Origin: Mobula hypostoma
Taxonomy: Eukaryota
Assembly: GCF_963921235.1 (NCBI RefSeq)
Contig: NC_086097.1
Span: 176,206,001 to 176,270,000, forward strand
Direction of reading: 5' to 3'
DNA length: 64,000 nt
The first letter of the stretch is position 1; each line of letters starts with the position of its first letter. The notes under the pieces were generated by a model. That model saw only the letters and a list, made by a program, of their open reading frames with translations. It was not told the DNA's origin and did not search any database. Positions 4,418 to 46,010 of the stretch are shown here, piece by piece. The position numbers and the translations under genes are program-made.

Positions 4418-6997
4418 GTACAATTGAGTCAACATGGATTCAGGAGGGTTTTGAAGCCTTTTGTCAGCTGCGGACAGCCACAGTGAGAAAATTTCAAGAC
4501 AGAGCCTGGAGATACACCACCTCTTGGTTGCTGTGTGCCAACTATCGCAGTGAGGAAGTCAGAGTCACTCAGGTGAGGCTGTTGGTCACTCTGCGGAGCC
4601 AGTCCATCTCCAAACCAAGAGAAATTCGCTCATGGCCTGAGTTCTTGCCACAGCTTCCTTACTCAACGTTCATTGAAGTCCAGCTGGCCCAGTTCCATAT
4701 GGAACGCGAGAAGGTGGCCTTCATGATCTCTCCTGACTGAGAAAGCCCTGGCATGGGCCACCATGTATTGGGAGTGAAGGTTGGAGATTTGCTTGGATGC
4801 GGAGGAATTCATGGTCGCTATGAAGAGGGTGTTCCATCATCCTGCCAGAGCTAAATGAGCCTCGGACCGCCTGGTGAAGGTGCGTTAGGGCAGTCAGTCA
4901 GCAGCCGACTATGCCATTGAATTTCAGACTTTGGCCTAAGAGAGTGGGTGGAACGAGGACGCCTTGGTCACTCTGTACCACCACAGACTCCGAGGCAAAC
5001 TAAAAGACGTCCTTGCCTTGGGGGAGTTGGTAGAGGACTTGGAGGCTCTGATTGATCAGCCCATCTGTCTTGATAATCGCCTGGCAGAGTGAGAGTGAGA
5101 CTACCTCAAGAGACTCGTCCAAACCCAGACTCAATGCACTGCAGTTCCATGCCCCAGCCTCAGGCAATGCTCAGGATCCTGTCAAGCCCATGCAAATTGG
5201 CTGCATAAGAATCTTCACCAAGTAGAGACTCTGGTGTAGGAGTTGAGGTTGCAGCTACAACTGTGGGGAAGCTTGTCACCTGTGTGCCAAATACCCTCGA
5301 GAAAACTATTAAGCTCATTTGGTGTTGGGAGGACTGTAATGGTAACAGCCACTATTCTCAACCTCTCAGAATTTGGTGTCACACTGAGGGCGGAGATCTC
5401 CTGGGGTAAGAACCAATGAGAAGTGAGTGCTTTATCAGACTCTGAGGCTGCTGGAAGTTTTCTGGACCTGGGGACCGCCCAGCAGCTCAATGGACTGCTG
5501 CAGGAGTTGAGCTAGCCCATGCCCGCCACTGTCTTGGACAGCTGTCTGCTTGGTTCCGGACAGATCCAGCAGCAGACATTGGTTCTGTGGATGAGGATAG
5601 AGGATCATGCTGAGGCCATTGGCTTCTCTATCACTGAGTCTCCTCACATACCCCTGACCCTCGGGCACATTTGGTTGTCCTAGCAAAACGCTTCCATGGA
5701 CTGGAAGGAAGGGAGCATCATCAAATGGTCCAGTCACTGCAAGAAGGTTTGTTTTCAGCTTGGTTCTGACCTCCAGACCCCCAGATCTGGAAGAGGCATT
5801 AAGCAAGGGAAAGGCTTCGACTCTTCCACTGCACTGACCCCACGACTATGCTATAGACTTATAGCTTGGTACTTGTCCAATGTGGAGTCAATTATACATG
5901 TTCTGAGGCCCAGAGAGAAGTGCTATGGAGGAGTATATAAAGGAGGCTCTTGCCCTGGGATTCATTCGACACTCTACCTCTCTAGATGGTGCTGGCTTCT
6001 TCTTTGTACAGAAGAAGTACAGGAGCCTGCAGCCGTGCATTGATTATAGAGGACTGTATCACACAATGGTCATGAATCGTTACTCTTTTCCACTCATGAG
6101 CACTGCCTTCGAGATTCTCCAAGAGGCTAGAGTATTCTCGAAACTAGACTTGCAGAGTGCGTACAGTCTGGTTCGCATAAAGGAGGGTGACGAGTGGAAG
6201 ATGGCATTCAACATACCGATAGGGCACTATAAGTATCTGGTCATGCCTTTCAGCCTTTATCAAAGGCCTGCAAATTCATCACCTTGGACAAACTACCATC
6301 TGTGGTGGAGATGGCTGAAATTGACCTGCACCAGGTCTTCAGGATCCACAGTTTTCCAACGGCCATTGTGTCAGATCGCTGTCCACATTTCATGTCATAT
6401 TTTTGGAGGGCACTCTGTGAGCTGATTGGGGCAAACATGAATCTTTCCTTTGGCTTTCACCCACAGTCCAATGATCGGTGAACCAAGGCTTGGAACAAAC
6501 CTTAGGATACCTGGCCTCTGAAAGACTGGACGAGAGGTGTGACCACTTGATGTGGGTAGATGTGCCCCTGACACTTCACAGCATTCAGCACACAGGATGT
6601 CCCATTTCAACTGCCAATTTGGATATTCTCCGCCACTCTTCCCTGAGCAGGAGGCTGAGTTTGGGGTTCCTGCTGCCAAAGATGTTGTCCGACTCTGACA
6701 GGAGAAATGGACTAGGGTAAGGGAGATTTTGTTAGCTTCTACCTGGAAAGCTGAAATGAAGGCCGATCACAAGAGAAAACAGGGACCAGATTTGCAGCCT
6801 GGGCACCAGGTACGGCTGTTGACTCAGGATTTGCCTCTCCGGGTGGAGTCTAGGAAATTGGTGCCCTTCGAGATTCTCAGGAAAGTTAACTCAGCGGCCT
6901 ACACCTTGTGGCTCCCCAAGGCCCCTAAGATCAAGCAACATACATCAAAGTTGCTGGTGAACGCAGCAGGCCAAGCAGCATCTATAGGAAGAGGCGC

Positions 6998-7033
6998 AGT
7001 CGACGTTTCAGGCCGAGACCCTTCGTCAGGACT
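6998..7033 (-). ncRNA. Minimal type-I hammerhead ribozyme motif, inverted copy
   Basis: Exact reverse complement of 8595-8630. Confidence 0.8.
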
Positions 7034-7330
7034 AACTGAAGGAAGAGTGAGTAAGGGATTTGAAAGCTGAAGGGGGAGGGGGAGATCCAAAATGATAGGA
7101 GAAGACAGGAGGGGGAGGGATAGAGCTGAGAGCTGGACAGGTGATAGGCAAAAGTGGATACGAGAGGATCATGGGACAGGAGGTCTGGGAAGAAAGACAA
7201 GGAGGGGGGGGTTGACCCAGAGGATGGGCAAGAGGTATATTCAGAGGGACAGAGGGAGAAAAAGGAGAGTGAGAGAAAGAATGTGTGCATAAAAATGAGT
7301 AACAGATGGGGTACGAGGGGGAGGTGGGGC

Positions 7331-7657
7331 CTAGCGGAAGTTAGAGAAGTCGATGTTCATGCCATCAGGTTGGAGGCTACCCAGATGGAATATAAGGTGT
7401 TGTTCCTCCAACCTGAGTGTGGCTTCATCTTTACAGTAGAGGAGGCCGTGGATAGACATGTCAGAATGGGAATGGGATGTGGAATTAAAATGTCTGGCCA
7501 CTGGGAGATCCTGCTTTCTCTGGCGGACAGAGCGTAGATGTTCAGCAAAGCGGTCTCCCAGTCTGCGTCGGGTCTCACCAATATATAAAAGGCCACATCG
7601 GGAGCACCGGACGCAGTATATCACCCCAGTCGACTCACAGGTGAAGTGATGCCTCAC
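7331..7657 (-). pseudogene. PLE GIY-YIG endonuclease domain, open C-terminal remnant of a 5'-truncated ORF
   Basis: HFTCESTGVIYCVRCSRCGLLYIGETRRRLGDRFAEHLRS..PVARHF..LRLEEQHLIFHLGSLQPDGMN: VIY/YIG motifs with CxxC typical of Penelope-like endonucleases. Confidence 0.92.
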
Positions 7658-8594
7658 CTGGAAGGACTGTTTGGGGCCCTGAATGGTGGTAAGGGAGGAA
7701 GTGTAAGGGCATGTGTAGCACTTGTTCCGCTTACACGGATAAGTGCCAGGAGGGAGATCAGTGGGGAGGGATGGGGGGGACGAATGGACAAGGGAGTTGT
7801 GTAGGGAGCGATCCCTGCGGAATGCAGAGAGAGGCGGGGAGGGAAAGATGTGCTTAGTGGTGGGATCCCGTTGGAGGTGGCGGAAGTTACGGAGAATAAT
7901 ATGTTGGACCCGGAGGCTAGTGGGGTGGTAGGTGAGGACCGGGGAACCCTATTCCTAGTGGGGTGGTGGGAGGATGGAGTGAGAGCAGATGTACGTGAAA
8001 TGGGGGAGATGCGTTTAAGAGCAGAGTTGATAGTGGAGGAAGGGAAGCCCCTTTCTTTAAAAAATGAAGACATCTCCCTCGTCCTAGACATCTACGCTCT
8101 GTCCGCCAGAGAAAGCAGGATCTCCCAGTGGCCACACATTTTAATTCCACATCCCATTCCCATTCTGACATGTCTATCCACGGCCTCCTCTACTGTAAAG
8201 ATGAAGCCACACTCAGGTTGGAGGAACAACACCTTATATTCCGTCTGGGTAGCCTCCAACCTGATGGCATGAACATCGACTTCTCTAACTTCCGCTAGGC
8301 CCCACCTCCCCCTCGTACCCCATCTGTTACTCATTTTTATGCACACATTCTTTCTCTCACTCTCCTTTTTCTCCCTCTGTCCCTCTGAATATACCCCTTG
8401 CCCATCCTCTGGGTCAACCCCCCCTCCTTGTCTTTCTTCCCAGACCTCCTGTCCCATGATCCTCTCGTATCCACTTTTGCTTATCACCTGTCCAGCTCTT
8501 GACTCTATCCCTCCCCCTCCTGTCTTCTCCTATCATTTTGGATCTCCCCCTCCCCCTCCAACTTTCAAATCCCTTACTCACTCTTCCTTCAGTT

Positions 8595-8630
8595 AGTCCT
8601 GACGAAGGGTCTCGGCCTGAAACGTCGACT
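8595..8630 (+). ncRNA. Minimal type-I hammerhead ribozyme motif in the PLE terminal repeat
   Basis: AGTC (stem I) - CTGACGA - AGG gtctcgg CCT (stem II) - GAAA - CGTC, predicted cleavage after 8626 - GACT (stem I). Stem III is reduced to palindromic ACGT. Confidence 0.8.
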
Positions 8631-9002
8631 GCACCTCTTCCTACAGATGCTGCCTGGCCTGCTGCGTTCACCAGCAACTTTGATGTATGTTGCTTGAATT
8701 TCCAGCATCTGCAGAATTCCTGTTGTTTGTCCTTAAGATCAATCCCACTTTCCATGTTTCCAAATGAAAGGCTGTGAACACCAGCCCTTTAGTCCACCAC
8801 CATCAGTTTTCTGCTGCCTGGGTTTGCCGTTAGCAGACTTTGGATTCACGAACTGTTCGGGGTGTTTGACAGTTCCCTGTGGACTAGGAAGGATTCGGAC
8901 CTGAGGAACGGTGCTGAGTTCCTGAAAGGAACATCTTGGATCTGGCTCTCATCCACGACTACCATCATCGTCTCTCTGAGCAGCCAGGACCATCAGGGGA
9001 GG

Positions 9003-9297
9003 ACACAGGCCAGCTTCCAGGGTTTAGACGCACTAACTCTCTGGAATATAGCTAGCTAGCATGGCTTCTTTAGAGAGTCAGGACACCCCGCTAATCGGCA
9101 GCCGTGTTTTGGCACCGGGATTTAATATTTAAAGAGCACCTGATCTGAGTGCTCAATTATCGTCTCAGTTTTGGGTGCTTGTCTAGCATCTAGTTTAGAA
9201 TCCTGCCTTCATTTCTGTCCTGTATCGTGACTCGATTCTAGTCTTGGATACTCCAGCACTTGGGTCCCAACCATCCTCACCTAGATCTCTCGTCACA
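9003..9297 (+). repeat. 3' LTR remnant of the chromovirus-like Gypsy
   Basis: Diverged direct repeat of 4100-4417 ending cgtcaca; no clear TG start or polypurine tract seen. Confidence 0.85.
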
Positions 9298-9309
9298 AGA
9301 TCTGAGGAT

Positions 9310-10190
9310 ACAAAATTGGTTTGCTGGTAAGAGCAAAGGTATTGGGGTCCTGTGGTGTGTTACAGAGATTGATGCTCAGTCCCCTGTTTTCAGTCATGTA
9401 TATTAACAATATGAATGAGAGCGTAAGTGACACTAAAACTGGTGGTAAAGTGGACAATGAAGAAGATTGTCTAAGCTTGCCACTGGATCTAGATCAACCG
9501 GCAAAGTGGGCCAAGGAATGGCAGACTGAATTTAACTCAGACAAGTGGAGAGTTGAAATTTCCAAAATTAAACCAGGGCAGACTTACACAGTAAGTGGCA
9601 GAGCCCTGGAGAATGCTGTAGAAAAAAAGAGACCTAGCGTTACAAGGACATTGTTCTGAGTAAGCGATGTCACAGATAAGGCAGTGTGCTGGAGAAGGCA
9701 TCTGGCACCCTTGGCTTTTTCAGTCAGGACCCGAAGTACAAGAGATGGAATGTTGTTTAGATTGAACGTGGAGTATCTTGTGCAGTCTTTTTGCCACACT
9801 GTAGTAAGGATGTGTTTAAGCTGGAGAGGGTGCAGAAAAGATACACAAGGATATTGTCAGGACTGGAAGTCTTCATTTTTTAGGGGAGATTGGATAGGGT
9901 GGGACATTTTTCACTGGAATGAAGGAGGGTGAAGGCTAACTTTGTCTTTTTCCCAGAGTAGGGGAGTCTAAATTTGAGGGCATTGCTTTAAGGTGAGAGG
10001 GGAAATAGGTAGAGGTCCTGGTAAAGACAAGTATAGTTACAACATTTAAAATATATTTTGACAGGTACACAAACAGGAAAGGGCTAGAGGTAAATAGGAC
10101 AATTGGAGGGAAATGGGATTAACTTTGAAAGGCATCTTGATAGGTACAGACAAGCTGGACTAAAGGCCTTGTTCCCATGCTGTAGAAGTC
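9310..10190 (+). mobile_element. CR1 LINE RT/3' fragment, degraded
   Basis: LSPLFSVMYINNM..DTKTGGKVDNEED..DLDQPAKWAKEWQTEFNSDK is the CR1 RT C-terminal motif, followed by a CR1-like 3' UTR. Confidence 0.85.
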
Positions 10191-10754
10191 TGAATTACTG
10201 AATTTCTAGAGTTTCAGCAAATTTACAAAGTGTTCAGTTTGGCCCGGCAAATTTACAAGGCTGGAGAAACTGAGATATAATTATCACATATCAATATTTA
10301 GTTTTGATTATCTTGAGAAGCAGCTCCACCCACAAATTTGTTTATCCCTAAAGTATGAATTAATCACCTTCTGAAATTGCACTTATTTAGAACAGAAAAA
10401 AGGAAGCAAATATTGTGCCCGAGTTTTAGAGTCAGTGTCACGTTTTGAAAATATTTCAACAGAATAAGAAAATTACTAATGGATTTCTGCAACATCAAAA
10501 AACTATTTGGGTGTTTCAGTATAAATTTCACGAAGATATATTTAGCAAATTAAGATTAAATTCCATACAGTAGGTGTATGAGAAACGTGTTTGAAATGTT
10601 TAATTCTGAGGACGAAGCCTACTTTCAACAGCAGAGATTTATAGAGTTATACAGCATACAAACAAGTCCTTTGGCCTGACTCATTAGTTGCTGACCAGGT
10701 TGCTTAGCAGCACTAGGCAAACAATCTGAATGTTCCAGAAATTCATGAAAAATC

Positions 10755-11305
10755 AGAATCAGGAAAGATCAAAATCAGGTTTATTATTATATTTGACGTA
10801 TGTTGTGAAATTTGTTGTTTTGTAGCAATGGTATAGAGCAAGTCATAAAAATTGCTGTAAGTCCCCAAAATAAATAATAAATAAATAGATATATTAATGG
10901 ATAGATAGACACAGTAGTTAGATAGACAGATAAATAATACAGAAGGGGAATAGCAGGATCATGTTTGTGGGTTATCAGATTGTTCAGAAATCTGACAGCG
11001 GAGTCAAAGAAACTGTTTCTAAAATATTGAATGTGGGTCTTCAGAATCCTGCATCTCGTCCCTGATGGCAATAATGAGAAGAAGCCATGTCCTGGATGGT
11101 GAGGGTCCCTAACAATGAATGCCACTTTCTTGAGGCACTGCTCTTTGAAGATGTTCTTGATGGTGTGGAGGTTTGTGCCTATGATAGAGGTGGAGAAGTC
11201 TACAATACTCTGCTGCCTCATTCAATTCCGTGCATTGGAGCCTCAGTGGCAGGTGGCGATGTAACCAGTCAGTATGCTCTCTGTGTTACCTCAGTAGAAA
11301 TTTTC
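10755..11305 (-). mobile_element. Rex1/Babar LINE 3' fragment
   Basis: ORF 10787-11221: IVRDPHHPGHGFFSLLPSGTRCR..FRNSFFDSAVRFLN; (GATTCT)-like tail. Confidence 0.85.
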
Positions 11306-11444
11306 TAGCCTTTTTAAAATTTAAAATTTTATTTTATTAATTTTTGATCTATTCATTTATTTTTATAATTCGGGGATTTTATGTTTTCACATTGTACTGC
11401 TGATGCAAAGCAATAAATTTCATGTCATATATCAGTAATATGAG

Positions 11445-12125
11445 GAGGAGGAGAAGATGGTGGCGTGACGCAGCGCGCATGGCCACTTCAGTGGTGATGT
11501 CTGTTATTTGTCAAGTAGGGGACCATGCACAATTGTGATTTGATGGAGACTGATGTGACAGTACGGAGGAAAATCTGGAGAAACTTCTGAAATGCCCACT
11601 TTGCTGCCGCTGTTACTGTGGGGTCCGGAATCTCTGGGGGTTAAGGCCCCGAATCCTTGGCTTTGCTTGTTTCGGCAGCCGGGATGAAGTCAAAAGCGCT
11701 CGGCAGAGGATGGCGTTCGGGAGGCAGTATCGGAGGGGCTGGTTGGAGGCCCGAAGTTTTCGGATGGACGGACTCAGTGTCGGCTGTGGTTGGGTGCTTC
11801 CAATGCATCGGCAGTTGTCGGTGCCTGGAGGTTTATGGCAGGGAGTTTCTCCCTTTGCCGCCTGCTATCGGGGACTCAGGGGTCGATCGACTCGGGACTT
11901 CGAGACTTTTTTTACCGTGCCCATGGTCTGTTCTTTATCAAATTATGGTATTGCTTTGCACTGCTGTAACTGTGTGTTATAATTATGTGGTTCTGTCAGT
12001 GTTAGTCTTTGGTTTGTCCTGTTTTTCTGTGATATCACTCTGGAGAAATGTTGTATCATTTCTTAATGCATTCATGCATTTCTAAATGACAATAAACGAG
12101 GACAGAGTGTTCTCATAATATAATT
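11445..12125 (+). mobile_element. Non-autonomous retroposon: GC-rich 5' leader plus AATAAA tail, no RT
   Basis: Starts gaggagaagatggtggcg (AAGATGGCG-like LINE leader), CpG-rich, ends gacaataaacgagg..cataatataattata; splits another LINE tail (atcagtaata / gatctgattctgattct). Confidence 0.6.
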
Positions 12126-14099
12126 ATAGATCTGATTCTGATTCTTGTCCCGTTTGCCCATGTTTGGCCCATATCCCTTGAAACCCTTCATATTTATGTA
12201 CCTGTCCAAACTGTCCATTTACAGAAAGGCACAAGGAAGTCTCAAACATGCAAGAAGAGCTTGAGCCTCTTCATTTTTATCAAGATCAATATGGGAATTT
12301 TTTTCATGTTTGATTTCGTTTTTTTTCATGTTTGTTTCAATAAAACTCAGGCCACAATAAATATCTATGTTTACATTCAATTTTAAACAAATGTTAAGAA
12401 TCAAATTAGTAATACAGCATAGAAATAGGTACTTTGGCCCAACTTCCTGGAAACATTCTCCTAAATCTTTTTTGCACTCTTTCTAACTTGATGCTGAACT
12501 TTCCTCTAACTTCATGTGGGCTTAAAAAGGTCACTTGAACTACCTGTCCATGGCAGATGATCACTGGTGGGATGGAGCTGGAAAAGCCCAGAAGAGTAAA
12601 GGAATGGCGGTGGAGGAATGAAAAAGAAGAATAGGTAAGAAAGTAAACGGGATCCGAGTGACAGGAAAGCAAGTGAACGTACTGTAGAAGAAAAATAAAT
12701 CAAAATGAATTAAGCTGAAGCTAGGACTTGGAGTCGCAGCTGAAAAGAAAAGTGTTGCCCATTTAAACGAGGCAACTGTTTACTCTGAGTGTCTTCTTTT
12801 AATAATGACACAGAGGGAACCTATTTCATCTCTCAGCTCTATGGCTGCAATTCCTACATACTCTACAGTACTCTGGACTCCAGCAACGTATTGCAGAATT
12901 ACAGTGGAAAGCTTTGCAGGCCATCCATACAGATCAGTCTGTAACAGCAAGGACCTTTGTGATGGATCTTCACTGTCTGGGGGACTTTATCATCTTTGTT
13001 AAGTTTAGCTTTCTAAACACAACAGCTGACATTTCTATTGATCAAATTGTTACTTTTGAGTAAGTTAAACTTCCAAACAATTCCCTTTGTTTAGCTTCTA
13101 TTTGTAAATGGGAGCTAGTCTTTAGTGATTAATGTAACTGGCAAACTGTAATCTGTTTGAAGTTAAAAGGACAGCTTTGCAAACAAGCACGGCCTATGGA
13201 AAAGATTTGATGGCCCAAAAGCTCCTGGTCTAACTGCTACAGAGGTGGAGTATAAGAAAATGGGTTATTTAATTTGGCTTGATTCAAAATAGACAACTCT
13301 AGCTATGTAGTTGAGTTCAAGAAAGCTTACAGACCAGACTGATATTATTACAGCACTTTAACAACTGATTTGTTAATAGTTGAAAGGTTTGTGTATTCAA
13401 GAGAGTTGTCCTCACCACATTATTTATGAGTACCTAGGAACTTTTGCCTCCGGAAACTTTTAGACTGTTTGTGTTAAAAGGTATCTGAAAAAAAGTCATG
13501 TTTATAAAGTCACCTAAATGGCAAAGAAACAGTATAAATGTAGAGACCAGTTCAGGCTTATTAGAAATAGTCAAGGAACATCAAGAAGAATGACAGAAAT
13601 ACAACATGAATTAGAATTCATTCCTCTGCCTTTGATTTCTGTGATGGATGATTAGCTTCTCGGAAACTCATGGGTATGTCTTCTTAGCTTAGATGAATTC
13701 TCCTTGTGTTTCGGAAATCATTTGTGTTTTAGAATGGTTTGTAGATTGAAAGTGTTTTTATAAGATAGAAATCCTCCGTGATTTTTAAATGTGTTTTAAA
13801 AATGTTGTTTGTAGATGCTTAACACTGAAAATAAATGAACTGTGTATAAACTACTTTGTTATCTGGACGTATCTCCTTCTTAGAAGTGGGGTTGGAGGGG
13901 GGAGCAGCAAAACACACCATGGAACTAGACTTTGAAGGTTGGGTCATTACAGTAGAATCTCCCTTTAGTGGGGCTACCTGTAGCTATCTATATCGGATAG
14001 GACTTAGGGTCTTTGTTTGAGTATAGAAATTTGTAGTCAGCAAACCCACACCTTTCAGCTCCCCATTTATTCTTTTTGCCATAATATGCATACTTAGGA

Positions 14100-14280
14100 T
14101 AACTTACAGAAACTAACTCACCCACCTAACTTTGGAATGTGGGAAGGTGCACCCAGGGAAACCACAGTAACTGCAGTGAAATAACTGGCAAATTCTATAT
14201 ACACAGCACCCAAAATCAGGAATGAACTCAGGACCATGAAGCCACCAGGCAGCAGAACTACCTTCTACACCACTGTGCCT
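14100..14280 (-). mobile_element. Degraded V-type SINE
   Basis: ctttggaatgtgggaagg..cacccagggaaaccac is the reverse V-domain core, followed by a B-box-like segment. Confidence 0.55.
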
Positions 14281-15764
14281 GCTACTTGAACCCAGACTGC
14301 AGGAGCAACCCAGTGGGTAAGCATATCCGCAGGACAGAGTACGGGAGAGGAGTTCTCGGCATCCCTGCATCAGCACTGAGAGTGGAGACAGTAGATAGCC
14401 GGTATCCTATTGTGTCTCCACTTGGAACTCTGTTCCTCAGAGGATAGTGGAAGCAGGACCTGTGAACATTTTCAAGGCAGAGGTAGGTTGACTCTTGATA
14501 AGCAAGGAGAATGAAATAGGGAGGAATATGGAGTAAAGGCCACAGATAGATTAGTTGTGATTAAAATGGTCATGCGGACTTGGTAGACAGAGTGACCGTC
14601 TCCTGCTTCTAAGTTGTACGTTTGGTAGGTATGATTACCGATTTTGGTTTAGCTGTGTTTTTTTTGGAGAATGAATGCTAATGCATCTCTTTTGTGGAGT
14701 TCTTTCTTACTATTGAGGGAACATAATCCACAAAAACGTCCTGAACTCAACACGAAGTGAGTAAACAAAAATTTAACCCGACATGGGATATATATTCAAA
14801 TTGAAGCAAAGGAATGATGATATTTTACAATGCTGTTGGGGCGTGTAGCTTCAAAGTTCAAAGTAAATTTATGAACATATAATTGACCATATACAATCCT
14901 GTCAATCATTTTCTTGCGGCCATATCAGTATATCCTATAAACACAACAGAATCAATGAGAGACTGCACCCAACAAGGTGGACAACCAGTATGCAAAGACA
15001 ACAAACTGTGCAAATATAAAAGAGAAAAAGAAACATGGAAGTTTATGGCTACTCCTGGGAGTTGGGTGTGAACTAAAACAAGACTTTGAAAAAGTGATCC
15101 CATTTCATTTTGTTCTAGTTGTGTTGTTTCTTGTAAAAATTGTTTATAACTTAAGTTTCATACATATTTTTCTTGTGAATGCTACTTGTATGATATGTTC
15201 CTGTGCTGCTGCAAGTTTTTAATTGTGCTTGTGCATACATTCATTTGTGCATATGATAGTAAACTTGACTTTTGTTTTGAAATCTCTGGCATCCCCCAGC
15301 CCCTACCCACCCAACTCACCTCAGGATCAGTCTACAAAATTCATCCCAACTTAAGTGAGACTGTGCATAGGAAGACCGCATAAAAGGATGTCGATTTCTA
15401 GTGGGAAAGATTAATACCAACAAAATGGCTCTGTATCTGTTTCCTGGCAAGAGAAATTCATGTCACCAACTGACTTTGCTATCTTCAATCTGTTGTCCAT
15501 CCAGTAAGGAATATTTATTCTTATTACTGGATGCAAATCCAGCCGAAACTATATACGATTATGTTAACTGGAAGGTTAAAAATGCTGATGCTGAGATATT
15601 GAATTTCTGAAAATAAAGCAGAAATGTTGGAAAGATCCAGCATCTCGCCAGCTCCTGTTGACCTGAAATATTAACAACTTCTCTCCTGAGTGATGTTACT
15701 TCTTCTGCTAACGATTTCCAACATTTCTCCGCTCCTGCCTCCCTGCCTGCAAACGCTGAAGACA

Positions 15765-15970
15765 ATTAACCCACTGACTTTACATGTCTTTGTGATGATG
15801 GAGGAAATCTGAGAGCGTGGGAGAAATTCATATGGTCACAGACAGACAGAACATGCAAACTCCACCCAGACAATGGCCGACTTCTACTCCTTTGTCTTAT
15901 GGTCTTATGGACAGTACTGGACGTCAGGATTAGACCTGGCTCTCTGGAACTGTGAGTCACCAGTTTCAAC
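15765..15970 (-). mobile_element. Degraded V-type SINE
   Basis: aattaaccc..tgtcttt..ggaggaaatctgagagc..ggtcac..agaacatgcaaactccac matches the other V-SINE copies in the window. Confidence 0.55.
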
Positions 15971-16316
15971 AGCCATCTGATTTCATTCCAAACCTTCTAT
16001 CAATTAGCCTAACTCTCTGTCGTTTGGCTGCTCAGCCTAAGAAAACAATCCTGTTTATCTCTCTGGGTCCCTCCTAGTTTTCTCAACTGCAGTTAAACCT
16101 CTTTCATTCTGAAAGAAACCATCAGAACATGGACCGTCTGTGTTTGAAGCAACTGATAGGCATGACTCATTGTGCTCTGTAGATTAGATACTCTTTCTGA
16201 TTCACGTATAATGTCTACATGTGACTGACTCTCTGTGAAAATATTTATTATCCTCCCTTAACTTGTTTGATTGGTGTAAACAGTTATGTTGAAGTATCAA
16301 TGGATCTGGAGTTACA

Positions 16317-16538
16317 GCAACACTCACAACACGCTGGAGGAACTCAGCAGGTCGGGCAGCATCCGTGGAAAAGATCAGTCGACGTTTTGGGCCGGAAACC
16401 TTCGTCAGGCCTGACAAAGGGCTCTGGCCCAAAACGTCGACTGATCTTTTCCACGGATGCTGCCCGACCTGCTGAGTTCCTCCAGCATGTTGTGAGTGTT
16501 GCTTTGACCCCAGTATCTGCAGATTATTTTGTGTTTAC
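16317..16538. mobile_element. PLE-derived palindromic (hairpin) element with 14-bp TSD
   Basis: Near-perfect palindrome centred on tcaggcctga (about 16410). TSD GATCTGGAGT(T/C)ACA at 16303-16316 and 16539-16552. Two inverted, mutated hammerhead cores. Confidence 0.9.
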
Positions 16539-16579
16539 GATCTGGAGTCACATGTAGGCCAGAACTGACTACAATAGAG

Positions 16580-18420
16580 CATAGAACTTAGAACAAGAGT
16601 GCAACACAAAGCAGTGCCTCTGGCCCATAATGTTGTGCTGCCTTTTTAATATACCCTAAGGTGTATCTAACCCTTCCCTCCCACATAGATCTCTGTTTTT
16701 CATTTATCCATGTGCCTATCTACGAGCCTCTTAAAGGTCGCTAATGTTTCTGCCTCTACTACTACCCCTGGCAGTGTGATCTGCTGTCTGCGCAAAATAT
16801 CTACCTCTAACATCCCCCCCCACCATACCTTCCTACAGTTACCTTAAAATTATGCCTCCTTGTATTAGCCATTTCCACCCTGGGAAAATATCTCTGGCTG
16901 CTCACTCTTTCTATGTCTCTTACCCCAATCAAGTCGCCTCTCATCCTTCACTCCAAAGAGAAAAGCTTTAGCTCACTCAACCTATCTTCCTAAGACGTGC
17001 TCTCTAATCCAGACAGTATCTTGGTAAATCTCCTCTGCACCCTCTCTAAAGCTTCCACATTCTTCTTATAATGTGGGATCTAGAAATGAACACAATATTC
17101 CAAGTGGGTCAAGATAGCACCAGCAAACAATGCTACCTTGGGTGACATCTTCTAGTTAGTCCACAAAACTGTTTCCTTCACTTCTTCTATGTCTTTTTTT
17201 TAAATTTTAAGTGTGTTTTTGGTACTGTTAGAGCCTTTGCTCTACAGACTGAAGATCGATTAAGTGATCTGGCACTTTGCTGTCTCCAAGAAGATTCCGG
17301 GAGGTGAGCAACCTCGATGCCTAGAAGCTTAGAGATGGACGTGAACCTACCATCGACCTCATTTCTCGACTATTAAAGCATCGGGGAAAATTTTGAGGTG
17401 AGTGTGGAAGGTGAATGAATGTTCAGTGCTATCTGCCAGCCTCTCACTCACTCTGCTGGAGGAAGGTGTCTGCCTGCGACAGTCTCTTGCTTGCTGCTCC
17501 TGGGGGAAGGCCCGTGTGACTGGGTGATCTCTCTCTCCTATGATGCTATCAGAGGATGGTACTGAAGTTCTGGGTCTGCAGTTTATAGATTGTACTGTGG
17601 TCTTCTTGGACTCATTCAGTTTTGTGTTTGATATTCTATGTTTTTGCCCATCCTTTCCTTTTGCTGTTTGTATGATTTGTTTTATTTTGCACAATGGTGG
17701 AGGGTTTGTGGTTTAATGTTCTTCTTGCTGTTTGTGCAATTCATTTGATGTTTTTCGTGTGGAGGATTGGGGCTTTGGTGTTTGTGGTTCTTGTTGCCGT
17801 TTGCACGATTTGTTTTTAGCGCATGGGAGTTGATGTTCTCGCCATTTGCACGATTTGTTTATTTTGTGCATAGAGAGGGGGAGTGTTGACATTTTTCTTT
17901 GAATGGCTTCCATGGCCTTCTTTGTTCCATGGCTGTCTGGAGAAGACAAATCTCAGAGTCGTATACTGTATGCATACTCTGATAATAAATGTACCTTGAA
18001 CCTTGAGCTAGAGTTTTATAGGGCTGTATCTCTTACCTCATGCCTCTTAACTCTTGAATTTAATCCCCCGACTACTGAAGCACACATGATATACCTTCAT
18101 AACCGCGCGATCATTTCCAAGGCACCTTTGAGGGATCAATAGACTTGGACTCCAAGTTCCCTCTGTTTCTCCACACTGCTAAGAATCCTGCCATTAACCT
18201 AGTATTCTGCTTTTTAGTTCAACTATTCAAACTGTATCACTTTGTACTTTTCCGCATTGAACTCTGTCTGTCACTTCTCAGCCCAGCTCTGCATCAATTA
18301 ATGTCCCATTCTAATCTGCAACAACCCTTTACACTATCCACAACACCACCAATCATTGTGCCATCTGCAAATTTGCGAACCCACCCTTCACCCAGGTCAT
18401 TTATAAAAATCACAAAGAGT
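16580..18420 (-). mobile_element. CR1 LINE 3' region interrupted by a non-coding retroposon
   Basis: CR1 3' end at 16580-17108 resumes at about 18010-18420 (RT region). Confidence 0.75.
17110..18006 (+). mobile_element. Non-coding retroposon with internal imperfect repeats
   Basis: Tail gataataaatgtaccttgaaccttga; several copies of ttgc(t/c)gtttg.a.gatttgttt..ttttgc between 17660 and 17870; related copy at 18580-19172. Confidence 0.6.
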
Positions 18421-18579
18421 TGTGGTTCCAGAAAACTAAAATCTGGGCTGGACGGGATACACAGTACCCCAGGTTACCATGTGAAGTGAAGGAACAGATT
18501 ACTGCACCTTTGGTGATAATATTTGCATCCTCACAGGCTAGGGGTAGATCGAGAAGATTGGAGGGTAGCAAAGGTTATT

Positions 18580-19172
18580 TCTTTGTCCCTTTAGATGTAG
18601 TTCTGGTACTGTTGGAGCCTGTGATCTACAGTTTGATGGTGTATTTTTGGGTCAATTTGAGTGATCTGGTGCTTTGGTATCTCCGAAAAGGAGGTGCGCG
18701 GGCATGAGACCAAGAAGCTTACAGATGGGATGTGAGCCCATGATCGACTCCATTTCTCACTGATTAAAGTGTCAAGGAAGACTGAAATCATTGTAGAAAG
18801 TGCGGAAGGTGAACAAGTGTTCGGTGCTGCTAACTGCCCTCGATGCTGTTGGAGGATGGTACCAAAGTTCTGGGTCTGCGGTTTATGGATTGGACTGTAG
18901 TTTGATTGAACTTTTAAAATCTTATGTTTTTATATTCTGTGTTTTCACTTGTTCTTTCATGTTACCATTTGTGCAATTTGTTTTTTTTTTTGCATGGGGG
19001 TTAGTTGACGTTCTTGTTGATGTTCGCGCAATTTGTACATTTTTTGCACGTGGGGGAGTGATGTTTTTCTTTGAATAGTTTCTATTTTTTTGTTTTGTGA
19101 CTGTCTGGAGAAGATGACTCTCAGAGTTGTATACTGCATACATACTTTGATAGTAAATGTACTTTGAACTTT
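18580..19172 (+). mobile_element. Second copy of the non-coding retroposon family at 17110-18006
   Basis: Shared blocks gtgatctgg..ctttg, ggatggtac..aagttctgggtctgc.gtttat, ctgtctggagaaga..tctcagagt, and tail aaatgtactttgaacttt. Confidence 0.6.
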
Positions 19173-19612
19173 AATTGCTGGGCGGGCTAGAGGTATAAGA
19201 TTTAAGAAGGATTCTGCATTTTGCTAATGATTTATTTCTCCTTTTGAGCATTATTATAATTTCTAATCTAAGCACATTCCCTCACTCTCTGTCAAAGGAT
19301 GAGTCAACAATTCGTCTCTGACTAACCTTTCAATCATCTTGCCTTGAATTCAATACGTCTAGACAAACTCTTTTTACTATTTTCATTATCTAAAGGAGCT
19401 TTATAAATGCAAATTTATACAGGTCACACAGAAGCAGAACGCATAATAAAGAATAAAGCTTATCAACAAACAGGGCGTCAGGGATAGTTGGTATAAATTT
19501 AAGAAGGGAAAGTGATTCTTGTCCAACCTCAGTGAGTTGTCTGTGGAATCAAGGGGAAGGGTAGACAAAGGGAACATAGTAGACGTACAGTATAACTAAA
19601 CACTCATGCACA

Positions 19613-19640
19613 GACACACACACACACACACACTCACATA
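19613..19640. repeat. (CA)n microsatellite
   Basis: Direct reading. Confidence 0.9.
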
Positions 19641-20562
19641 CAGACTAACACTCACACCCATCCATGCAAAACATGCACAAATGCAAACACACACAGAGAA
19701 TTCCAGTCAGAGTTTTATAATTATGCTGGCTGCTTGACCGAGACAATGAGAACTGTAGACAGAGTTCATGGTGGAGAGATTAGTTTCTGTGATATGCTGA
19801 GCTGTATCCACATCTCTGCAGTTCCTAGGAGCCAGAGGCAGAGCAGTTGCCAAACCAAGCTGTGGTGCATCCCGATAGGATGCTTCAGCAGTTATTTATT
19901 GGTTGTACACCATGTCAGAATGTATTTGTCTCAAGGTCTATATCATCCTTCTATTCGATGTCCATGATGTTGTTGCTCAGTCTTGAAAATAAATTGCCAT
20001 CCCTAATATCTTAATTCTTATGAATATGTCCACTTGATAAATTCATCTTACCATAATTTGCAAAAGATGATGGACCTGTGGAATGACAGCTGGAGAGAGG
20101 AAGGGGGGGGGAGAGGGGGGGAGGGGGGAGGGGGGGAAGAGGGGGGAAGCGTGGAAACAGGAACAAGGCTTTGGAAAGGTGATCCCAATTTTAGCTCCTT
20201 CTTTAACCAGGTTACTTTAATCAATTCGAGTTTGCTGTTATGTGCACAAGTATGATGAGGGACAGGGACAATGAAAAACCTGCTTGCAGCAGCATCACAG
20301 GCACATAGGTGCAGACAACACTCAGAATACAAATTATACACGTCCTATCCACCATGTGACTGCTTATTGGTCTGTCATGTGATTGGTCAATTTCACAGGC
20401 TTGTCCATCTATCAACTAACTTTTAACTTACTAACAAGACCACAAGACATAGGAGCAAAATTAAGCCATTTGGTCCACTGAGTCTGCTCTGTCATTCAAA
20501 CATGGCTGATTTTTTTTTCCCCCCTCCTTCACCCCTCTACATGGCCTTCTCACATAACCTTT

Positions 20563-22434: not shown

Positions 22435-22577
22435 CCTTTGATACTGTGGCCAATCAAGAGCCTATCAATCTGCACCTTGAATACAGCCAACGACCCGGAT
22501 TCCGTAGCTGCCTGTAGCAACAAATTCCACAAATTTACCACACTCTGGCTAAAGAAATTTCTGTACATCTGTTTAAA

Positions 22578-22815
22578 ATTTACAAAGATGTTATCTGGAT
22601 TGGAAAGCGTGCCTTATGAGAATAGATTAAGTGAACTTGGCCTTTTCTCCTTGGAGTGACTGAGGATGAGAGGTGTGCAAGATGATGAGAGACATTGAAC
22701 ATGTGGATAGCCAGAGGTTTTTTCCCAGGGCTGAAATGGCTAACATGAGGAGGCTTAGTTTTAACATACTTGGAAGTAGGTACAGAGGGAATGTCAGGGG
22801 TAAGTTTTTCCACAC
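22578..22815 (+). mobile_element. CR1 LINE 3' coding fragment
   Basis: FTKMLSGLESVPYENRLSELGLFSLE..VDSQRFFPRAEM. Confidence 0.85.
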
Positions 22816-23788: not shown

Positions 23789-23851
23789 AACACACATCAA
23801 AGTTGCTGGTGAACGCAGCAGGCCAGGCAGCAGCAGAATTCCCCGTGTTTG
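23789..23851. mobile_element. 63-bp collapsed PLE-derived hairpin element with exact 14-bp flanking duplication
   Basis: aacacacatcaaagttgctggtgaacgcagcaggccaggcagca joined to gcagaattccccgtgtttg; flanked by CGTTTAATTTTAGA at 23775-23788 and 23852-23865, inside a CR1 tail. Confidence 0.88.
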
Positions 23852-24617
23852 CGTTTAATTTTAGACTTTGTTACCCTGGGAAAAAGGCGATGGCTTTTAT
23901 CATATCTATGCCCATCTTGATTTTGTAAGCATCTATAAATCACTCCTCAGCCTCCTTCGCTTCAGGGAGAAAAGTCCCTGCCTTTGCTCAAGGAAAATAA
24001 TGAACCAAATGCTTTTTTTAAATGTAATCAGGCATTTACATGCCCCCATTATAGCCAGAGGCAATTCTACTGCAATGATTTTCCATAATGTCAATTGGTT
24101 ACAACATGACTGATAGATGAGAGAATACTATGTATTTTACTTGCACCACACTGGTGATAGCACGATCACAATCTGGATAACTTGTTTAAATCTGTGCTTT
24201 CAAGGCAACTGCTGGCTATTCTGCCATAACATGACTTTCTATAACACAAAGTTTCTGAGGAATGTAGTTATCACATTATTGCAGAATTCCTTGCCCTTCT
24301 CATTACCCATTTATTTAGTGAATTGAATTTAACTCCCAGATATCATGATGGGTCTTGAGCGGTTGATTTGATTATTAGATGAAAACTCTCAGTTTGAGTT
24401 TTGTTATTTAACCACTACGCTGCTGCACTACTTTTCAATGGACTTCTTTGCACTACAATTGATTTGTATTTTTTTTGTTCTAATTGTGTTTTTTTGGTAT
24501 TTTTTTTGTATAATTTAGCACATAGAACAGAAAACTAGAGTGCATTAAGGACCCTAAGGCCCACGGTGTGTTGCTGACTGATGTACTTTGATAATAAATT
24601 TACTTTGAATTTTATAC

Positions 24618-28679: not shown

Positions 28680-28683
28680 CTTA

Positions 28684-30800
28684 AACAGGAGAAAGTCTGC
28701 AGATGCTGAAAATCTAAAGCAACACCTACAAAATGCTGGAGGAGCTCAGCAGGTTAGGCGGCATCTATGGAAATGAATAAGTAGTCGATGTTTTGGGCAT
28801 TCAGGTCTGAAAAGGAAGGGGGAAGATGCCAGAATAAAAAGGTGGAGGGAGGAGAAGGAGACTAGCTAGATGGTGATAGGTGAAGCCAGGTGAGTGGGAA
28901 AGATAAAGAACTGGAGAAGAAGGAATCTGATAGGAGAGAAGAGTGAACCAGAGGAAAATGGGGAGGAGTGAAGGATCCAGAGGGAGGTGATAGACAGGTC
29001 AGAAGAGGCAAGAGGTCAGAATCGGGAAGAGAAGTGGGGGGTGGGGGGGGGGTGGCGGAGAGAAATTTTTTTAACCAGAAGGAGAAATCTATATTCATGA
29101 CATTAGGTTGGAGGCTACCCAGGTGGAACCTGAGGGTGGTCTTATCTTGGCAAAGGGGAGGCTATGGACCAACATGTCAGAATGGGAATGTGAATCGGAA
29201 TTAAAATGTTTGGCCACCAGGAAGTTCCGTTTATGGTGGATGGAGCGGAGGTGCTAGACGAAGTGGTCCCCCAGTTTACGACTGGGAGGGGGGCGGGGTG
29301 CTCTCACCAAATGTCGAGGATGCTGCATTGGGAGCACTGGACTCAATAGACAACCTCAGCAGATTTGTAGATGAACACTGCTTCACCTGGAAGGATTGTT
29401 TGGGCCCCGAGTGGGGGTGAATGAGCAGGTGTAGTACTTAGGCCAATTGCAGGGATAAGTGTCGGGAAGGAAAATTAGAGGGGAGGGACAAATAGAACAG
29501 GGAATCACAGAGGGAATAATCCCTGCAGAAAGCAGCGAGAGAGGGGAGGTAAAGATATGTTTAGCAATAGGATCCCTTTGGAGATGGCAGACGTTGTGGA
29601 GGATGCTGTGTTGCATGTGGAGATTCAAAGGGTGGTAGGAAAGGACAAAAGGAACACTATCACTGTTAAGGCGGCAGGAAGATGGGGTGAGAGCAGCTGT
29701 TCAGGAAATGGATGAGATGCAGGTGAGGGCAGCATCACTAGTGGAGGAAGGGATACCCAGTTCTTTGGAGGAGGACATTTCTGATGTCCTGGAAAGGAAA
29801 GCCACTTCCTAGAAACAGAGCAACACACATACAAGTTGCTGGTGGACGCAGCAGGCCAGGAAGCATTACAGGAAGAGGTACAGTTGACGTTTCGGGCCGA
29901 GACCCTTCATCAGGTCTCGGCCCAAAACGTCGACTGTACCTCTTCCTATAGGTGCTGCCTGGCCTGCTGCATTCACCAGCAATTTTTATCTGGGTTTCTT
30001 GAAATTCCAGCATCTGCAGATTTCCTCATGTTTGCGTTCCTAGAAACAGATGCAGCAGAGGTGAAGGAACTGAGAAAAAGAAATAGCATTTTTACAGGAG
30101 AGGGGGTGAGAAGAGCTATAGTCAAAATAACTGGGAATCGGTAGGTTTATAAAAGATGTCGGTTTGTCTCCTGGGATGGAGACAGATCAGGAAAGAGGAG
30201 TAAGGTGCCAGAAATGGACCAGGTGAATTTAAGGGCAGGGTGGAAGTTAGGGGCAAGGTTGATGAAATTGACAAGCTCAGGGTGGGTGCATAAGGCAGTA
30301 CCAATGCAGTCAACAATGTAACAGAGGATAAGTTGGACAGCATCACCAGGGAAAGCTTGGAACACAGATTGTTCTACGCGACCAACAAAGGGGCAGGCAT
30401 AGCTTGGTGTATGTGGGTGTCCAGGGCTACCTTTTGAGTCTGGAGAAATTGGGAAGAGCCGAAGAAAACAATTGTTCAGGGTAAGGGCCAGTTCTGCCAG
30501 ATGGAGGAAGGTAGTGGCGAAGGGAACTGGTTGGTTCTTTCCTTGAGAACAAAGCAGAGAGCTTTGATGCCTTCTTGATAGGGGATGCAAGTGTATAGGA
30601 ACTGAGCATCCATGGTGAATATGAGGTGGTCAGCACCAGGGAATTGAAAGTTTTGAGGAGATTGAGAGCATCAGAAATATCTTGGATGTAGGTGGGAAGG
30701 AACTGAACCAAGGAGGATAGAACAGAGTCGAGATATGATGACACGAGTTCAGTGGGGGTAGGAGCAGGCAAAGGCAACAGGCCTATCCGGACAGTTAGGT
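28684..30800 (-). mobile_element. Older Penelope-like element: RT, GIY-YIG and terminal repeat
   Basis: PTELVSSYLDSVLSSLVQFLPTYIQD, LAELALTLNN, PSYACPFVG and NFHPALKFTWSIS PLE RT motifs; 3' part homologous to 6935-8087. Confidence 0.9.
29820..30036. mobile_element. PLE-derived palindromic element with exact 14-bp TSD, nested in an older PLE
   Basis: TSD TTCCTAGAAACAGA at 29806-29819 and 30037-30050; inverted arms; minus-strand core CTGATGA-AGGGTCTCGGCCC-GAAACGTC. Confidence 0.92.
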
Positions 30801-35909: not shown

Positions 35910-36265
35910 ACTAGGAGTTAGAGAAATCAATGATAATGCCATCAGTTTGGAAATTACCAAGATGGAAAATGAGTTGCTGCTCTTTCATATGTGTCTGACC
36001 TCATTGTGGCAGTAGAGGAGTCTGTAATCAGATGTGTACATGTCAGTGTGGGAATTGGAAGAGGAATTGAAATAGATGGCTACCAGGAGACTTTGACTGC
36101 TGTGAAGGACAGAGCAATATTGCCTGATGAAGCACCCCACCCCCAATCTGTGTCAGGTCTCGGCGATGTGGAGGAGGCCACACCAGAAACACCGGATACA
36201 ATAAATGACCCCGAAAGACTCATAGATGAAGCACTGCCTCTCCTGGAAGGACTGTTTAGAGCACA
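35910..36265 (-). mobile_element. Degraded PLE GIY-YIG fragment
   Basis: Collinear with 7335-7680 (gttagagaa.tc.atg..atgccatcag.ttgga..; ctggaaggactgttt). Confidence 0.75.
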
Positions 36266-36509
36266 CAGAGAGAGCAACAGCAGAGATACAGGATGGGAGA
36301 ACTTCACATCGATGACTTCACTGGGTCTAAACAACACTGGGATATTCTGAAGGAGTGTATGAAGCACTATAGAAATGCTGGTCTTGCTTTTATTTATTTT
36401 TCGATGTTTGGCTTGAACTGACAACCTTTGCTAAGATTCCTGTTATTGGATCTGTTGCAAGAAAATAAAATAACAGGAGAATGCTACAATAAACAGTTGG
36501 ATCATTTGC

Positions 36510-36700
36510 TGCAACTAACAATCTGCTAGAGGAACTCAATGGGTCGAGGAGTGGAAAGGAAATGTCAATGCTTCAGATCAAAACCCTGTACCAGGACACA
36601 ATATTGACAATTCCTCCCCCTCCCCTCATGTGCTGCTCGATGCACTGAGTTCTTCCAGTAGGTTTTTATTTCTGCAGGTTCCACCATCTGTAGTCTCTTG
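36510..36700. mobile_element. Old degraded PLE-derived hairpin element
   Basis: ctgctagaggaactca..tgagttcttccagtag inverted arms and ccaccatctgtagtctcttg end. Confidence 0.55.
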
Positions 36701-36704
36701 GTAA

Positions 36705-37170
36705 ATTGGCTTATTATTATCACATGTAGCGAGGTACAGTTTTATATCTCTGTTTCGCATGCCATCCATACAGAAGATTTCACGAGTACGTCAAGCTAGT
36801 AGAAGGAAAGAGTAATAGCAGAATGCAGTATACGGCATTGCAGTTACAGGGAGAGTGCAGTGCAGGCAGACAATAAGGTGAAAGGTCATGATGAGGTAGA
36901 TTGTGAAGTCAAGAGCCTATCAGATCATAATAGGGGGCCGTTCAATAGTCTTACAACAGCAGGGTAGAAACTATGCTTGGAACTTCCCGGTGTCTGCATC
37001 TTCTGCTCGATGGGAGGGGGGGGGAAGAAAGAAAATTTGGAATGGGTGGTGTCTTTGATTATGCTGGCTGATTTACTGAGACAGCGAGAAGTATAGACAG
37101 AGTCCATTGAGGGGAGGCTGAAATCAGTGATGTGCTGAGCGGTGTCCACAATTTTCTGCAGCTTCTTGTG
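36705..37170 (-). mobile_element. Rex1/Babar LINE 3' fragment
   Basis: DTAQHITDFSLPSMDSVYTSRCLSKSASIIKD..SFYPAVVRLLNGP. Confidence 0.85.
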
Positions 37171-43574: not shown

Positions 43575-43728
43575 TATTTGCAGGATTGCCTTAGGACTGC
43601 CTTAGGGACTCTAGCTCCAGATTTTTCCTCGGAGTTTACTTCTGAAGCCTTCCTCATGAGTGAGAATAGCTGCAAGGCAGTGGAGGTTTGAGATCAGAGT
43701 TTTCTCTCTGCTAGATAAACTGCCAACA
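43575..43728 (-). repeat. Second copy of the RTE-5'UTR-like repeat, inserted in CR1 ORF1
   Basis: Reverse complement of 39840-39985 with a short indel. Confidence 0.7.
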
Positions 43729-43757
43729 AGGTTCCCTGTGACCATCCCTCTCAATAA

Positions 43758-43904
43758 CTCACAAACAAGGGAAGATCTGCAGATGCTGGAAATCTGAGCA
43801 ACACACACAAAATACTGGAGGAACTCAGCAGGCTAGGCAGCATCTATGGACTTTTTCCATAGACGCTGCCTGGTCTGCTGAGTTCCTCCAACATTTTGTG
43901 TGTG
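43758..43904. mobile_element. PLE-derived hairpin element lacking the hammerhead core, 13-bp TSD
   Basis: Arms acacacacaaaat.ctggaggaactcagcag..gcagcatctatgga / tccatagacgctgcc..ctgctgagttcctccaacattttgtgtgtg; TSD TCCCTCTCA(A/C)TAA at 43745-43757 and 43905-43917. Confidence 0.88.
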
Positions 43905-46010
43905 TCCCTCTCACTAATGTTGGGGGGGGGGGTGAGAGCAGAGGAAAGTCAAGCGATCAGGACTCTGGCACTGAGTCCGACTCTGTGACTCAGAAGGGAA
44001 AGTGGCAGAAGATGCAAGCTGTGGTGATAGGGGGTTCGTTAGTTGGGGAACAGACAGAAGGTTCTGCGGATGAGATCAAGACTTTCGGATAAAACGTTAC
44101 CTCCTTGGTGCTAGGGACTAGGACACCTTGGATCATGTTGCCAGTATTCTTAAGTGGGAGGGTGATTAACTAGAGGTCGTGGTTCAGTAGGTACCAATGA
44201 CATGGGTAGGAAGAGTGATGAGGTTCTGGAAAGTGAGTTCAGGGAGTTAGGCACTAAGGTAAAGGACAGGGCCTCCAGTGTTGTGATCTCAGGATTGCTA
44301 CCTGTGCCACATGCTAGTGAGGCCAGTAGTAGGAAGATCATACAGTTTTACACTTGGCAAAGGAGCTGGTGTAGATATCAGATTTTTGGATCATTGGGCT
44401 CTCTTCTAGGTAGGTGGGACCTGAATGGAAGAGACAATTAGCACCTGAACTGGAGGGGAACTCATTTTTTGCATCTATATTTACTCGGGAGATGGACATA
44501 GAGTGTATAGAACTGAGGCAAAGTGACATCAACTTCATGGACCGTACACCGATTACAGAGGAGGAGGTGTTTGCTATTCTGAGGCAAATTAGGTTGGATA
44601 AATCCCCAGGGCCTGACTATATATTCCCTCAGACCCTACGGGAGGCAAATGCAGAAATTGTCGGGCCCTAGCAGAGTTATTTAAATGATCCTTAGCAACA
44701 GGAAAGGTACCAGAGAATTGGAGGATAGCCAATGTTGTAATGCTGTTTAAGAAAGGCTCTAAACATAATCCAGGAAATTATAGGCTAGTGAGTCTGACAT
44801 CAGTTGAGAGAAAGTTATTGGAATGTATTCAACTGGACTGGATTTATACTGTACTGTAAGCATTTAGATAGACATTGGACTGGATTTATACTGTAAGCAT
44901 TTGGATAGTCAGCAAGGCTTTGTGCATGGTAAGTCATGTCTGACCTATCTTAAAGATGATTTCGAGGGAGTTACCAGGACAGTGGATGAAGACAAGGCAG
45001 TGGATGTTGTCTACATGGACAACATTTGATAAAATCCTGCATGGGAGGTTGATCAAGACAGTTCAGAGACTCGGCAGTCAAGATGAAGTACTAAATCGGA
45101 TTAGATGTTGGCTTTGTGGGAGAAGCCTGAGAGTGGTATTAGATGGTTGTCTCTCTGAATGGAGGTCTGTAATTAATGGAGCGCCACAGGGATTGATGCT
45201 GGGTCCATTGCTGTTTGTCATCTATATCAATGATCTGGATGATAATGTGGCTAACACTGGATCAGTAAATTTGCAGATGACACCAAGATTGGGGGTGTTG
45301 TGTACAGTAAGGTGGACTATCAGAGCTTGTAGCGGGAGCTGGCCCAGCTGGAGAAATGGGTTGAAAATTAGCAGGTGAAATTTAATGCAGATGAGTGCGA
45401 GGTGTTTTCACTTCAGTTGGACCTACCAGGGTAGGTCTTTCACAATGAACAGTAGGGCAGTGAAGAGTCTGGTAGATTCATTGAAACTGGAGGCACAGAT
45501 AGCTGGGGTCATTAAGAAAGCTTTTGACACATTGTCCTTCATAAATCAAAGTACTGAGTACAGGAGATGGAATGTTGTGTTGAAGTTGTATAAGACACTG
45601 TTGAGGCCTAATTTGGAGTACTGTTTTCAGTTTTGGTCACCTGTCTACAGGAAAGAGTAAAGAGAAAATTTAAAAGGATGTTGCCGGACAGGAGGACCTG
45701 AGTTATAAGAAAGATTGAATAAGTAAGGGCCTTATTCTTTGGAACTTAGAAGACTGAGGGGAGATTTGATAGAAATTTATGAGGGGCATAGATAGGGCAA
45801 ATGCAAACAGACTTTTTCCACTGAGATTGGGTGGGACTATAACATGGGTTCAGGGGAAAGGTGAAAAGTTTAAGGGGAACATGAGGGGAAACTTCTTCAC
45901 TCAGAGGATCGTGAGAGAGTGGAATGAGCTGCCAGCACAAGTGGTCCATGTATAAGAGAAGTTTGGATAGGTATATGGATAGTAGGGGTATTGATGGTTA
46001 TGGTCTAGGT

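Follow-up and report, generated by a model that had tools for sequence, protein, structure and literature searches.

The window analyzed here is a 64,000-nucleotide (nt) stretch of the genome of Mobula hypostoma (NCBI RefSeq assembly GCF_963921235.1, contig NC_086097.1, positions 176,206,001 to 176,270,000, forward strand), and all coordinates are positions in this window. It contains a series of insertions derived from a Penelope-like element (PLE), in which two truncated copies (arms) of the element's 3' part lie between short duplications of the target. The initial annotation had listed five such insertions with a shared architecture, and all five were located at the claimed positions: A (6935-8729), B (16317-16538), C (29820-30036), D (43758-43904) and E (23789-23851). 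The list was incomplete: one more two-armed copy (I), the sixth, had been missed, as had two one-armed copies, F at 28683 and H at 52420. The whole analysis rests on five or six two-armed copies, whose arms and target duplications are the following.

6935..8087, minus strand: A, tail-less arm, the 5'-truncated 3' part of a PLE, 1153 nt
8088..8729, plus strand: A, tail-bearing arm, 642 nt including a 36-nt tail (8694-8729)
16317..16538: B, a 93-nt tail-less arm (minus) and a 129-nt tail arm (plus) that begin at the same base
23789..23851: E, a 44-nt tail-less arm and 19 nt of tail
29820..30036: C, a 95-nt tail-less arm and a 124-nt tail arm with 2 nt in common, inside the older copy F
36511..36697: I, sixth, older two-armed copy
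43758..43904: D, in the opposite orientation, a 93-nt tail arm (minus) and a 55-nt tail-less arm (plus)
6921..6934 (left) and 8729/8731-8742 (right): duplication of A
16303-16316 and 16539-16552: duplication of B
23775-23788 and 23852-23865: duplication of E, exact
29806-29819 and 30037-30050: duplication of C, exact
36497-36510 and 36698-36711: candidate decayed duplication of I, 10/14 matches
43745-43757 and 43905-43917: duplication of D

The arms face outward, head to head, in every two-armed copy, and the tail is present on one end only. On the coordinates of the right arm of A, which are used for all end and inner-end positions, the tail-less ends fall at 8693 (A, B and C), 8691 (E) and 8689 (D), and the tail-bearing end runs past the tail-less end by 36 (A), 36 (B), 38 (C) and 44 (D) nt. 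Two earlier statements are borne out by these values, namely that one end starts within a few bases of a common point and that the other end is about 30-45 nt longer (36-44 nt in A-D). The divergence between the two arms was 2.0% in A, 5.4% in B, 14.1% in C, 10.0% in D and 22% in I.

The description of the insertions as simple fold-backs was accurate for only one copy. Both arms of B have their inner end at 8598 and form a perfect palindrome with zero spacer, while the two arms of A, C, D and E have different inner ends. The tail-less arm of A extends 546 nt farther inward than the tail arm, and that of D about 6 nt farther; the inner ends are at 8598 and 8608 in C, at 8648 and 8711 in E, and at about 8596 and 8618 in I. 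The tail-less arm therefore reaches farther inward in five of the six copies (A, C, D, E and I) and equally far in B.

The chance level of the target duplications was set by applying the same search to 300 random position pairs, two of which reached a score of 9, one reached 10 or more and none reached 14. The insertions scored 9 (A), 11 (B), 14 (C), 10 (D) and 14 (E). The duplications claimed earlier are thus above chance at all five sites, whereas their length of 13-14 bp has to be widened to 12-14 nt: A has 12 nt with one mismatch (or 13 or 14 nt with two), B 14 nt with one, C 14 nt with none, D 13 nt with one and E 14 nt with none. The candidate duplication of I was spotted by eye and then scored (chance 0.016), the duplication search giving a best score of 4 there.

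Sites restored with a single copy of the duplicated word were compared with sites keeping both. At C, the one-copy model preserved the reading frame of the host copy F and the residue spacing relative to homologous proteins (six of the seven homologues listed, the seventh being aligned to an unrelated stretch), while the two-copy model shifted the frame. At E, nine junction-spanning matches elsewhere in the window were found under the one-copy model and none under the two-copy model; when six paralogous stretches were scored directly, one copy was favored in three and three were ties. The fit of the one-copy models indicates that the duplications at C and E arose at insertion. The window stretch 7545-24500 was further compared with 4 of 22 listed runs, of which X16 covered little of it. 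In run X9, from a relative ∼10% diverged, a contig across the E site had 397 letters against 471 in the window, i.e., 74 fewer, where an empty site would be shorter by 77 (one copy) or 63 (two copies). A second X9 contig departed from the window at 8732, within the duplication of A, with 100 letters unaligned, and may be a paralog. The proposed check for empty sites in relatives thus points to one at E, while at A the relative's contig only diverges from the window. An X5 contig near E stopped at 23856, and another extended 25 nt into B, so that B is shared with that relative.

Some similarity was found between the targets and the element itself. Past the tail-less end, 26 of 50 host letters were those with which the element itself continues (6, 7, 2, 5 and 6 per site; null 12.9, sd 3.1, P 8e-5), as expected if the primer pairs with the RNA. 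When the duplications were read tail side first, all five ended in A (P 0.005), and five columns held only purines or only pyrimidines (P 0.0013), among them Y-T-R-R at positions 4-7 with A taken as 13 nt. These motif tests were post hoc, used the same five sites and are mutually non-independent; the duplication of I ends in T and fits the motif partially. The similarity and the motif are weak leads only, and they weakly contradict the earlier statement that the sites have no shared target sequence.

The features from which the element was identified are the following.

7331..7948, minus strand: GIY-YIG endonuclease frame of 205 residues in the long arm of A (Pfam PF01541)
8595..8630, plus strand: minimal type I hammerhead motif in the terminal repeat, core from 8599, predicted cut after 8626
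7004-7029, minus strand: second copy of the hammerhead

The PF01541 match had an E-value of 7.7e-5 and 23.4 bits (cut-off 22.6), and the frame terminates just before the 3' region of the element. The best of 27 relatives of this endonuclease was a protein labelled Mobula hypostoma (95% identical), followed by proteins of Hypanus and of sharks. A ends before the reverse transcriptase (RT) core; PF00078 was present in 3 of the 27 homologues, which also align to copy F. In the translation of A the endonuclease is preceded by a C-x4-C-x2-C linker. According to PMC8557442, a CX2-5CxxC linker is present in Neptune and Nematis and absent from Penelope and Poseidon; the A translation also has a further feature by which endonuclease-bearing (EN+) PLEs are recognized in that paper, with the histidines assigned by eye. 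By its linker, the element is a PLE with a predicted endonuclease of the Neptune/Nematis type, and the Penelope origin given to the insertions by the initial annotation is upheld.

The hammerhead core pattern matched three times in the window against 0.03 expected. The motif lies on the sense strand of the element, inside the terminal repeat, with cleavage predicted only; no Rfam family matched in the window at gathering score, and the terminal 145 nt folded no better than shuffled sequences (z -0.81). The tail-less ends are 63-67 nt beyond the predicted cut site. Turning of the arms at the ribozyme cut was considered and rejected, as no inner end of A-E, H or I lies at 8626/8627.

Several inner ends do coincide elsewhere. 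Three arms begin at 8598, one base before the hammerhead core, I begins at 8596 and H at 8594. This pile-up at 8594-8598 fits either the 5' end of the RNA or a stall of the polymerase. By eye, the junctions share about 1 (A), 0 (B), 2 (C) and about 1 (D) bases, and that of E lies no farther than 3 nt from an inverted match of 9 nt (8644-8652 with 8703-8711) in the RNA. These positions bear on the view that the size series arose by later deletion, with long palindromes like A losing their centers by slippage or hairpin excision. Long palindromes are unstable, and across a longer hairpin the 9-nt match near the E junction would be a direct repeat. The same match would equally let two new copies anneal at insertion. 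Further, A still has arms of 611 nt at 98% identity, the junctions of A-D share only 0-2 bases, and random deletion would not make three arms stop at an identical base with a further two no more than 4 nt away; later deletion is therefore very improbable as the source of the series. As a separate observation, a pyrimidine-rich run ending in AG occupies 8560-8598, just before hammerhead helix I, where several arms stop, and is similar to a splice acceptor or initiator; the Penelope intron of Drosophila virilis ends at this hammerhead helix (PMC4209133).

Taken with the arm and duplication structure, each insertion probably represents head-to-head truncated PLE ends made in one two-ended priming event. 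The endonuclease would cut one strand 13-14 bases away from its cut in the other, and the element RNA would be copied into DNA separately from each free 3' end. The two copies would stop at separate points and be joined bluntly or via one or two shared bases, after which gap filling would create the duplication. Possibly both polymerases work on one RNA, the one at the inner site ahead, and the short copies may come to an end at a constant position right ahead of the ribozyme core. In support of this, the arm adjoining each duplicated word is the antisense copy that the 3' end of that strand could prime. The arms of A, C, D, E and I are non-nested, the tail-less arm reaching farther inward and the tail being present only on the other arm. 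Since the arms of A, C, D and E each hold unique sequence, neither is a plain copy of the other, and a second priming on RNA would be needed at least for the tail. Priming at both ends, as the initial annotation proposed, is supported by these data; the start sites, however, lie inside the terminal repeat and not at the RNA's 3' end. In L1 twin priming, both nicked strands likewise prime on element RNA and join internally, resulting in an inversion within one duplication. The segments made by L1 copy different parts of the RNA, whereas the arms described here copy the same region and give a palindrome.

Part of this chemistry has been published. For PAc, a Poseidon element of Anolis carolinensis, both strands were nicked and extended in vitro, two internal start sites coincided with the tail boundaries, and a dimer was predicted (PMC11167929). 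The run-off products of PAc shortened with the RNA 5' end, and ribozyme cleavage was unneeded and did not determine product length (PMC11167929). The two-start, both-strand scheme that had been put forward as an inference for the ray insertions is thus supported but was already on record for the anole element. Here as in PAc, the two starts are one tail-length apart and shortly downstream of the hammerhead. The systems differ in that PAc is a Poseidon element with an AC-rich loop start, a preference for ATT targets and no target-RNA homology (PMC11167929), while the element in the ray has GT-rich sense-strand ends, a Neptune/Nematis linker and targets that weakly resemble the RNA past the start.

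A single priming followed by self-priming was weighed against two-ended priming. Here the first copy, or the antisense template, would fold back, and the endonuclease would trim the hairpin unevenly by 36-44 nt, giving the tail. Fold-back has been proposed for palindromic inverted junctions (PMC3846280) and the tail has been proposed to be the result of endonuclease resolution of an intermediate (PMC8557442); the zero-spacer palindrome of B is of this kind, and fold-back also predicts a tail-less arm that extends inward at least as far as its partner, as observed in all copies. A plain fold-back cannot, however, yield the mutually unique arm sequence of A, C, D and E, it would require in A a 546-nt loop closed by about one shared base, and the tail boundaries match the mapped RT start sites of PAc (PMC11167929). 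We consider self-priming alone unlikely. A hybrid is conceivable, with the tail alone primed from the second strand and the remainder produced by fold-back; the order of the inner ends is consistent with two polymerases on one RNA, the inner one ahead, and equally with such a hybrid.

Several points weigh against two-ended priming as set out above. The in vitro support comes from a Poseidon element (PMC11167929), while the element here is of Neptune/Nematis type. That paper describes no difference in start site between the strands and no target-RNA homology, and the two-armed copies in the window always have one end of each kind and some target similarity. Between the arms of A, ten substitutions lie in the outer half against two (P 0.037), and the arms of C differ by 14% beside an exact duplication (P 0.12); both differences could reflect two templates. 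Neither copy model gave any junction-spanning match in the window for B and D. Compared by eye with a paralog at 58780-58900, about 21 nt seem to be lost directly after the second duplicated word of D (43905-43930), a loss that may predate, accompany or follow the insertion. Finally, a fold-back-like junction was present in X5 at a depth of 316, compared with 31-69 for single-copy contigs, and some junctions may thus recur.

The last point is also relevant to the alternative left open by the initial annotation, that the short hairpins are a non-autonomous family resembling miniature inverted-repeat transposable elements (MITEs) and copied by Penelope enzymes. Such a family could account for the one junction at about 5-10 times the single-copy depth, for the near-equal size of B and C (222 and 217 nt) and for the three arms stopping at one base, and non-autonomous PLE derivatives do exist (PMC8557442; bioRxiv 10.64898/2026.07.22.740005). 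Nevertheless, no junction is shared among the six two-armed copies in the window, and at least three subfamilies are represented: B, C and D each fall into a separate one, and within each of these copies the two arms agree in subfamily. The ends are asymmetric, with 36-44 nt on one end only, instead of the symmetric terminal inverted repeats of MITEs. Among the best 15 of 14052 joints between window pieces in the contigs of the runs compared, with some joints uncounted, no new fold-back inside the terminal 640 nt was found, and 204 X1 contigs carried ordinary upstream element sequence across the junction of A. The short hairpins are likely dead-on-arrival products and not a separate mobile family. 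Of the two origins first suggested, the MITE-like one receives little support and has a low probability.

A more specific form of two-ended priming is offered tentatively. A Neptune-type dimer may nick at a fixed stagger of 13-14 bases and load two RTs on one RNA in a fixed order, first at the inner start and then at the tail start, so that the second never passes the first. The choice of target might be guided by weak base pairing to the RNA beyond the inner start or by an endonuclease recognizing tail-like DNA, and the ∼220-bp hairpins might be run-off products at an RNA 5' end before the ribozyme core.

Additional element copies and host sequences were present in the window. A profile made from eight arms gave 15 matches in the window, whereas the reversed window gave none. 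Two of the 15 were weak (E-values 0.012 and 0.57) and were left unused; copy I, the end of F and fragment H were brought out by the others.

28683..30800, minus strand: F, older PLE copy with one arm, about 2 kb long, which has a tail end at 28683 and hosts C
52420..52492, minus strand: H, one-armed terminal-repeat fragment
5907-6934 and 8730-8770: decayed Ty3/gypsy-type retrotransposon interrupted by A, with weak RVT_1 and SH3_Tf2-1 matches

F showed neither a second arm nor a duplication, and a duplication was searched for at H and not found. A decayed fragment of a PLE endonuclease region lies at 35916-36482 on the minus strand. A interrupts the SH3-like domain of the gypsy element: the match in its left flank (PF24626 positions 22-47, below the curated cut-off) runs up to the duplication, and the right flank alone had no Pfam match. 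The stretch 56123-58037 is a 1.9-kb tandem array of 20-nt units (periods 40 and 100; 95% matches) with three plus-strand frames without stops. In the contigs of the runs compared, the tail end of the element (8718-8729) was seen joined to the start of a repeat (14850-14871) that has relatives at 19154 and 24595, with 64 contig counts in X1, 35 in X5 and 10 in X9 over four joint rows; this may reflect a preferred target or a chimeric family. A joint from 16494 to 23789, i.e., a B-type end into an E-type start, was present in 6 X1 and 9 X5 contigs, which suggests that elements inserted at one another's ends. A pattern scan for more loci gave none in metagenome contigs, viral contigs and prokaryote genomes, as expected for fish DNA.

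The insertion shape is real and is already well described for PLEs; here it is present in a family of Neptune/Nematis type. An inverted repeat, a tail of 31 bp, duplications of 8-10 bp, a head-to-head arrangement and palindromes at junctions have been described (PMC3846280), an inverted 5'-truncated copy with a 30-40 bp tail is general in EN+ PLEs (PMC8557442), and PLE inverted repeats vary in size from copy to copy (PMC2377424). The window copies share with canonical EN+ PLEs the head-to-head arms of variable length, the tail on one end, the duplication, palindromes at some junctions and the hammerhead in the terminal repeat. They differ in their duplications of 12-14 bp, compared with 8-10 bp in Adineta, in that most are 63-222 bp long and noncoding, and in the absence of a direct tandem of pseudo-long terminal repeats from all of them. 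With MITEs and non-long-terminal-repeat retrozymes (bioRxiv 10.64898/2026.07.22.740005) they have in common that they are short, noncoding derivatives with repeat ends or a hammerhead, whereas symmetric terminal inverted repeats, junctions shared within the window and a head-to-tail tandem array are absent. The literature search, which left most subscription papers and Repbase outside and is weak evidence, found no description of such copies in rays. What the window copies add is the mutually unique arm sequence, the inward order of the tail-less arm, the stop at 8598 and the weak target similarity.

How PLEs complete integration and how the inverted arms form are named as open questions in PMC8557442 and PMC11167929. 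The family is very abundant, and the nick stagger, the one-tail rule with its arm order and the target preference are countable from one assembly. If the reading with a dimer on one RNA is true, the very many copies in ray genomes would chart, in vivo, how the second half of Penelope integration proceeds.

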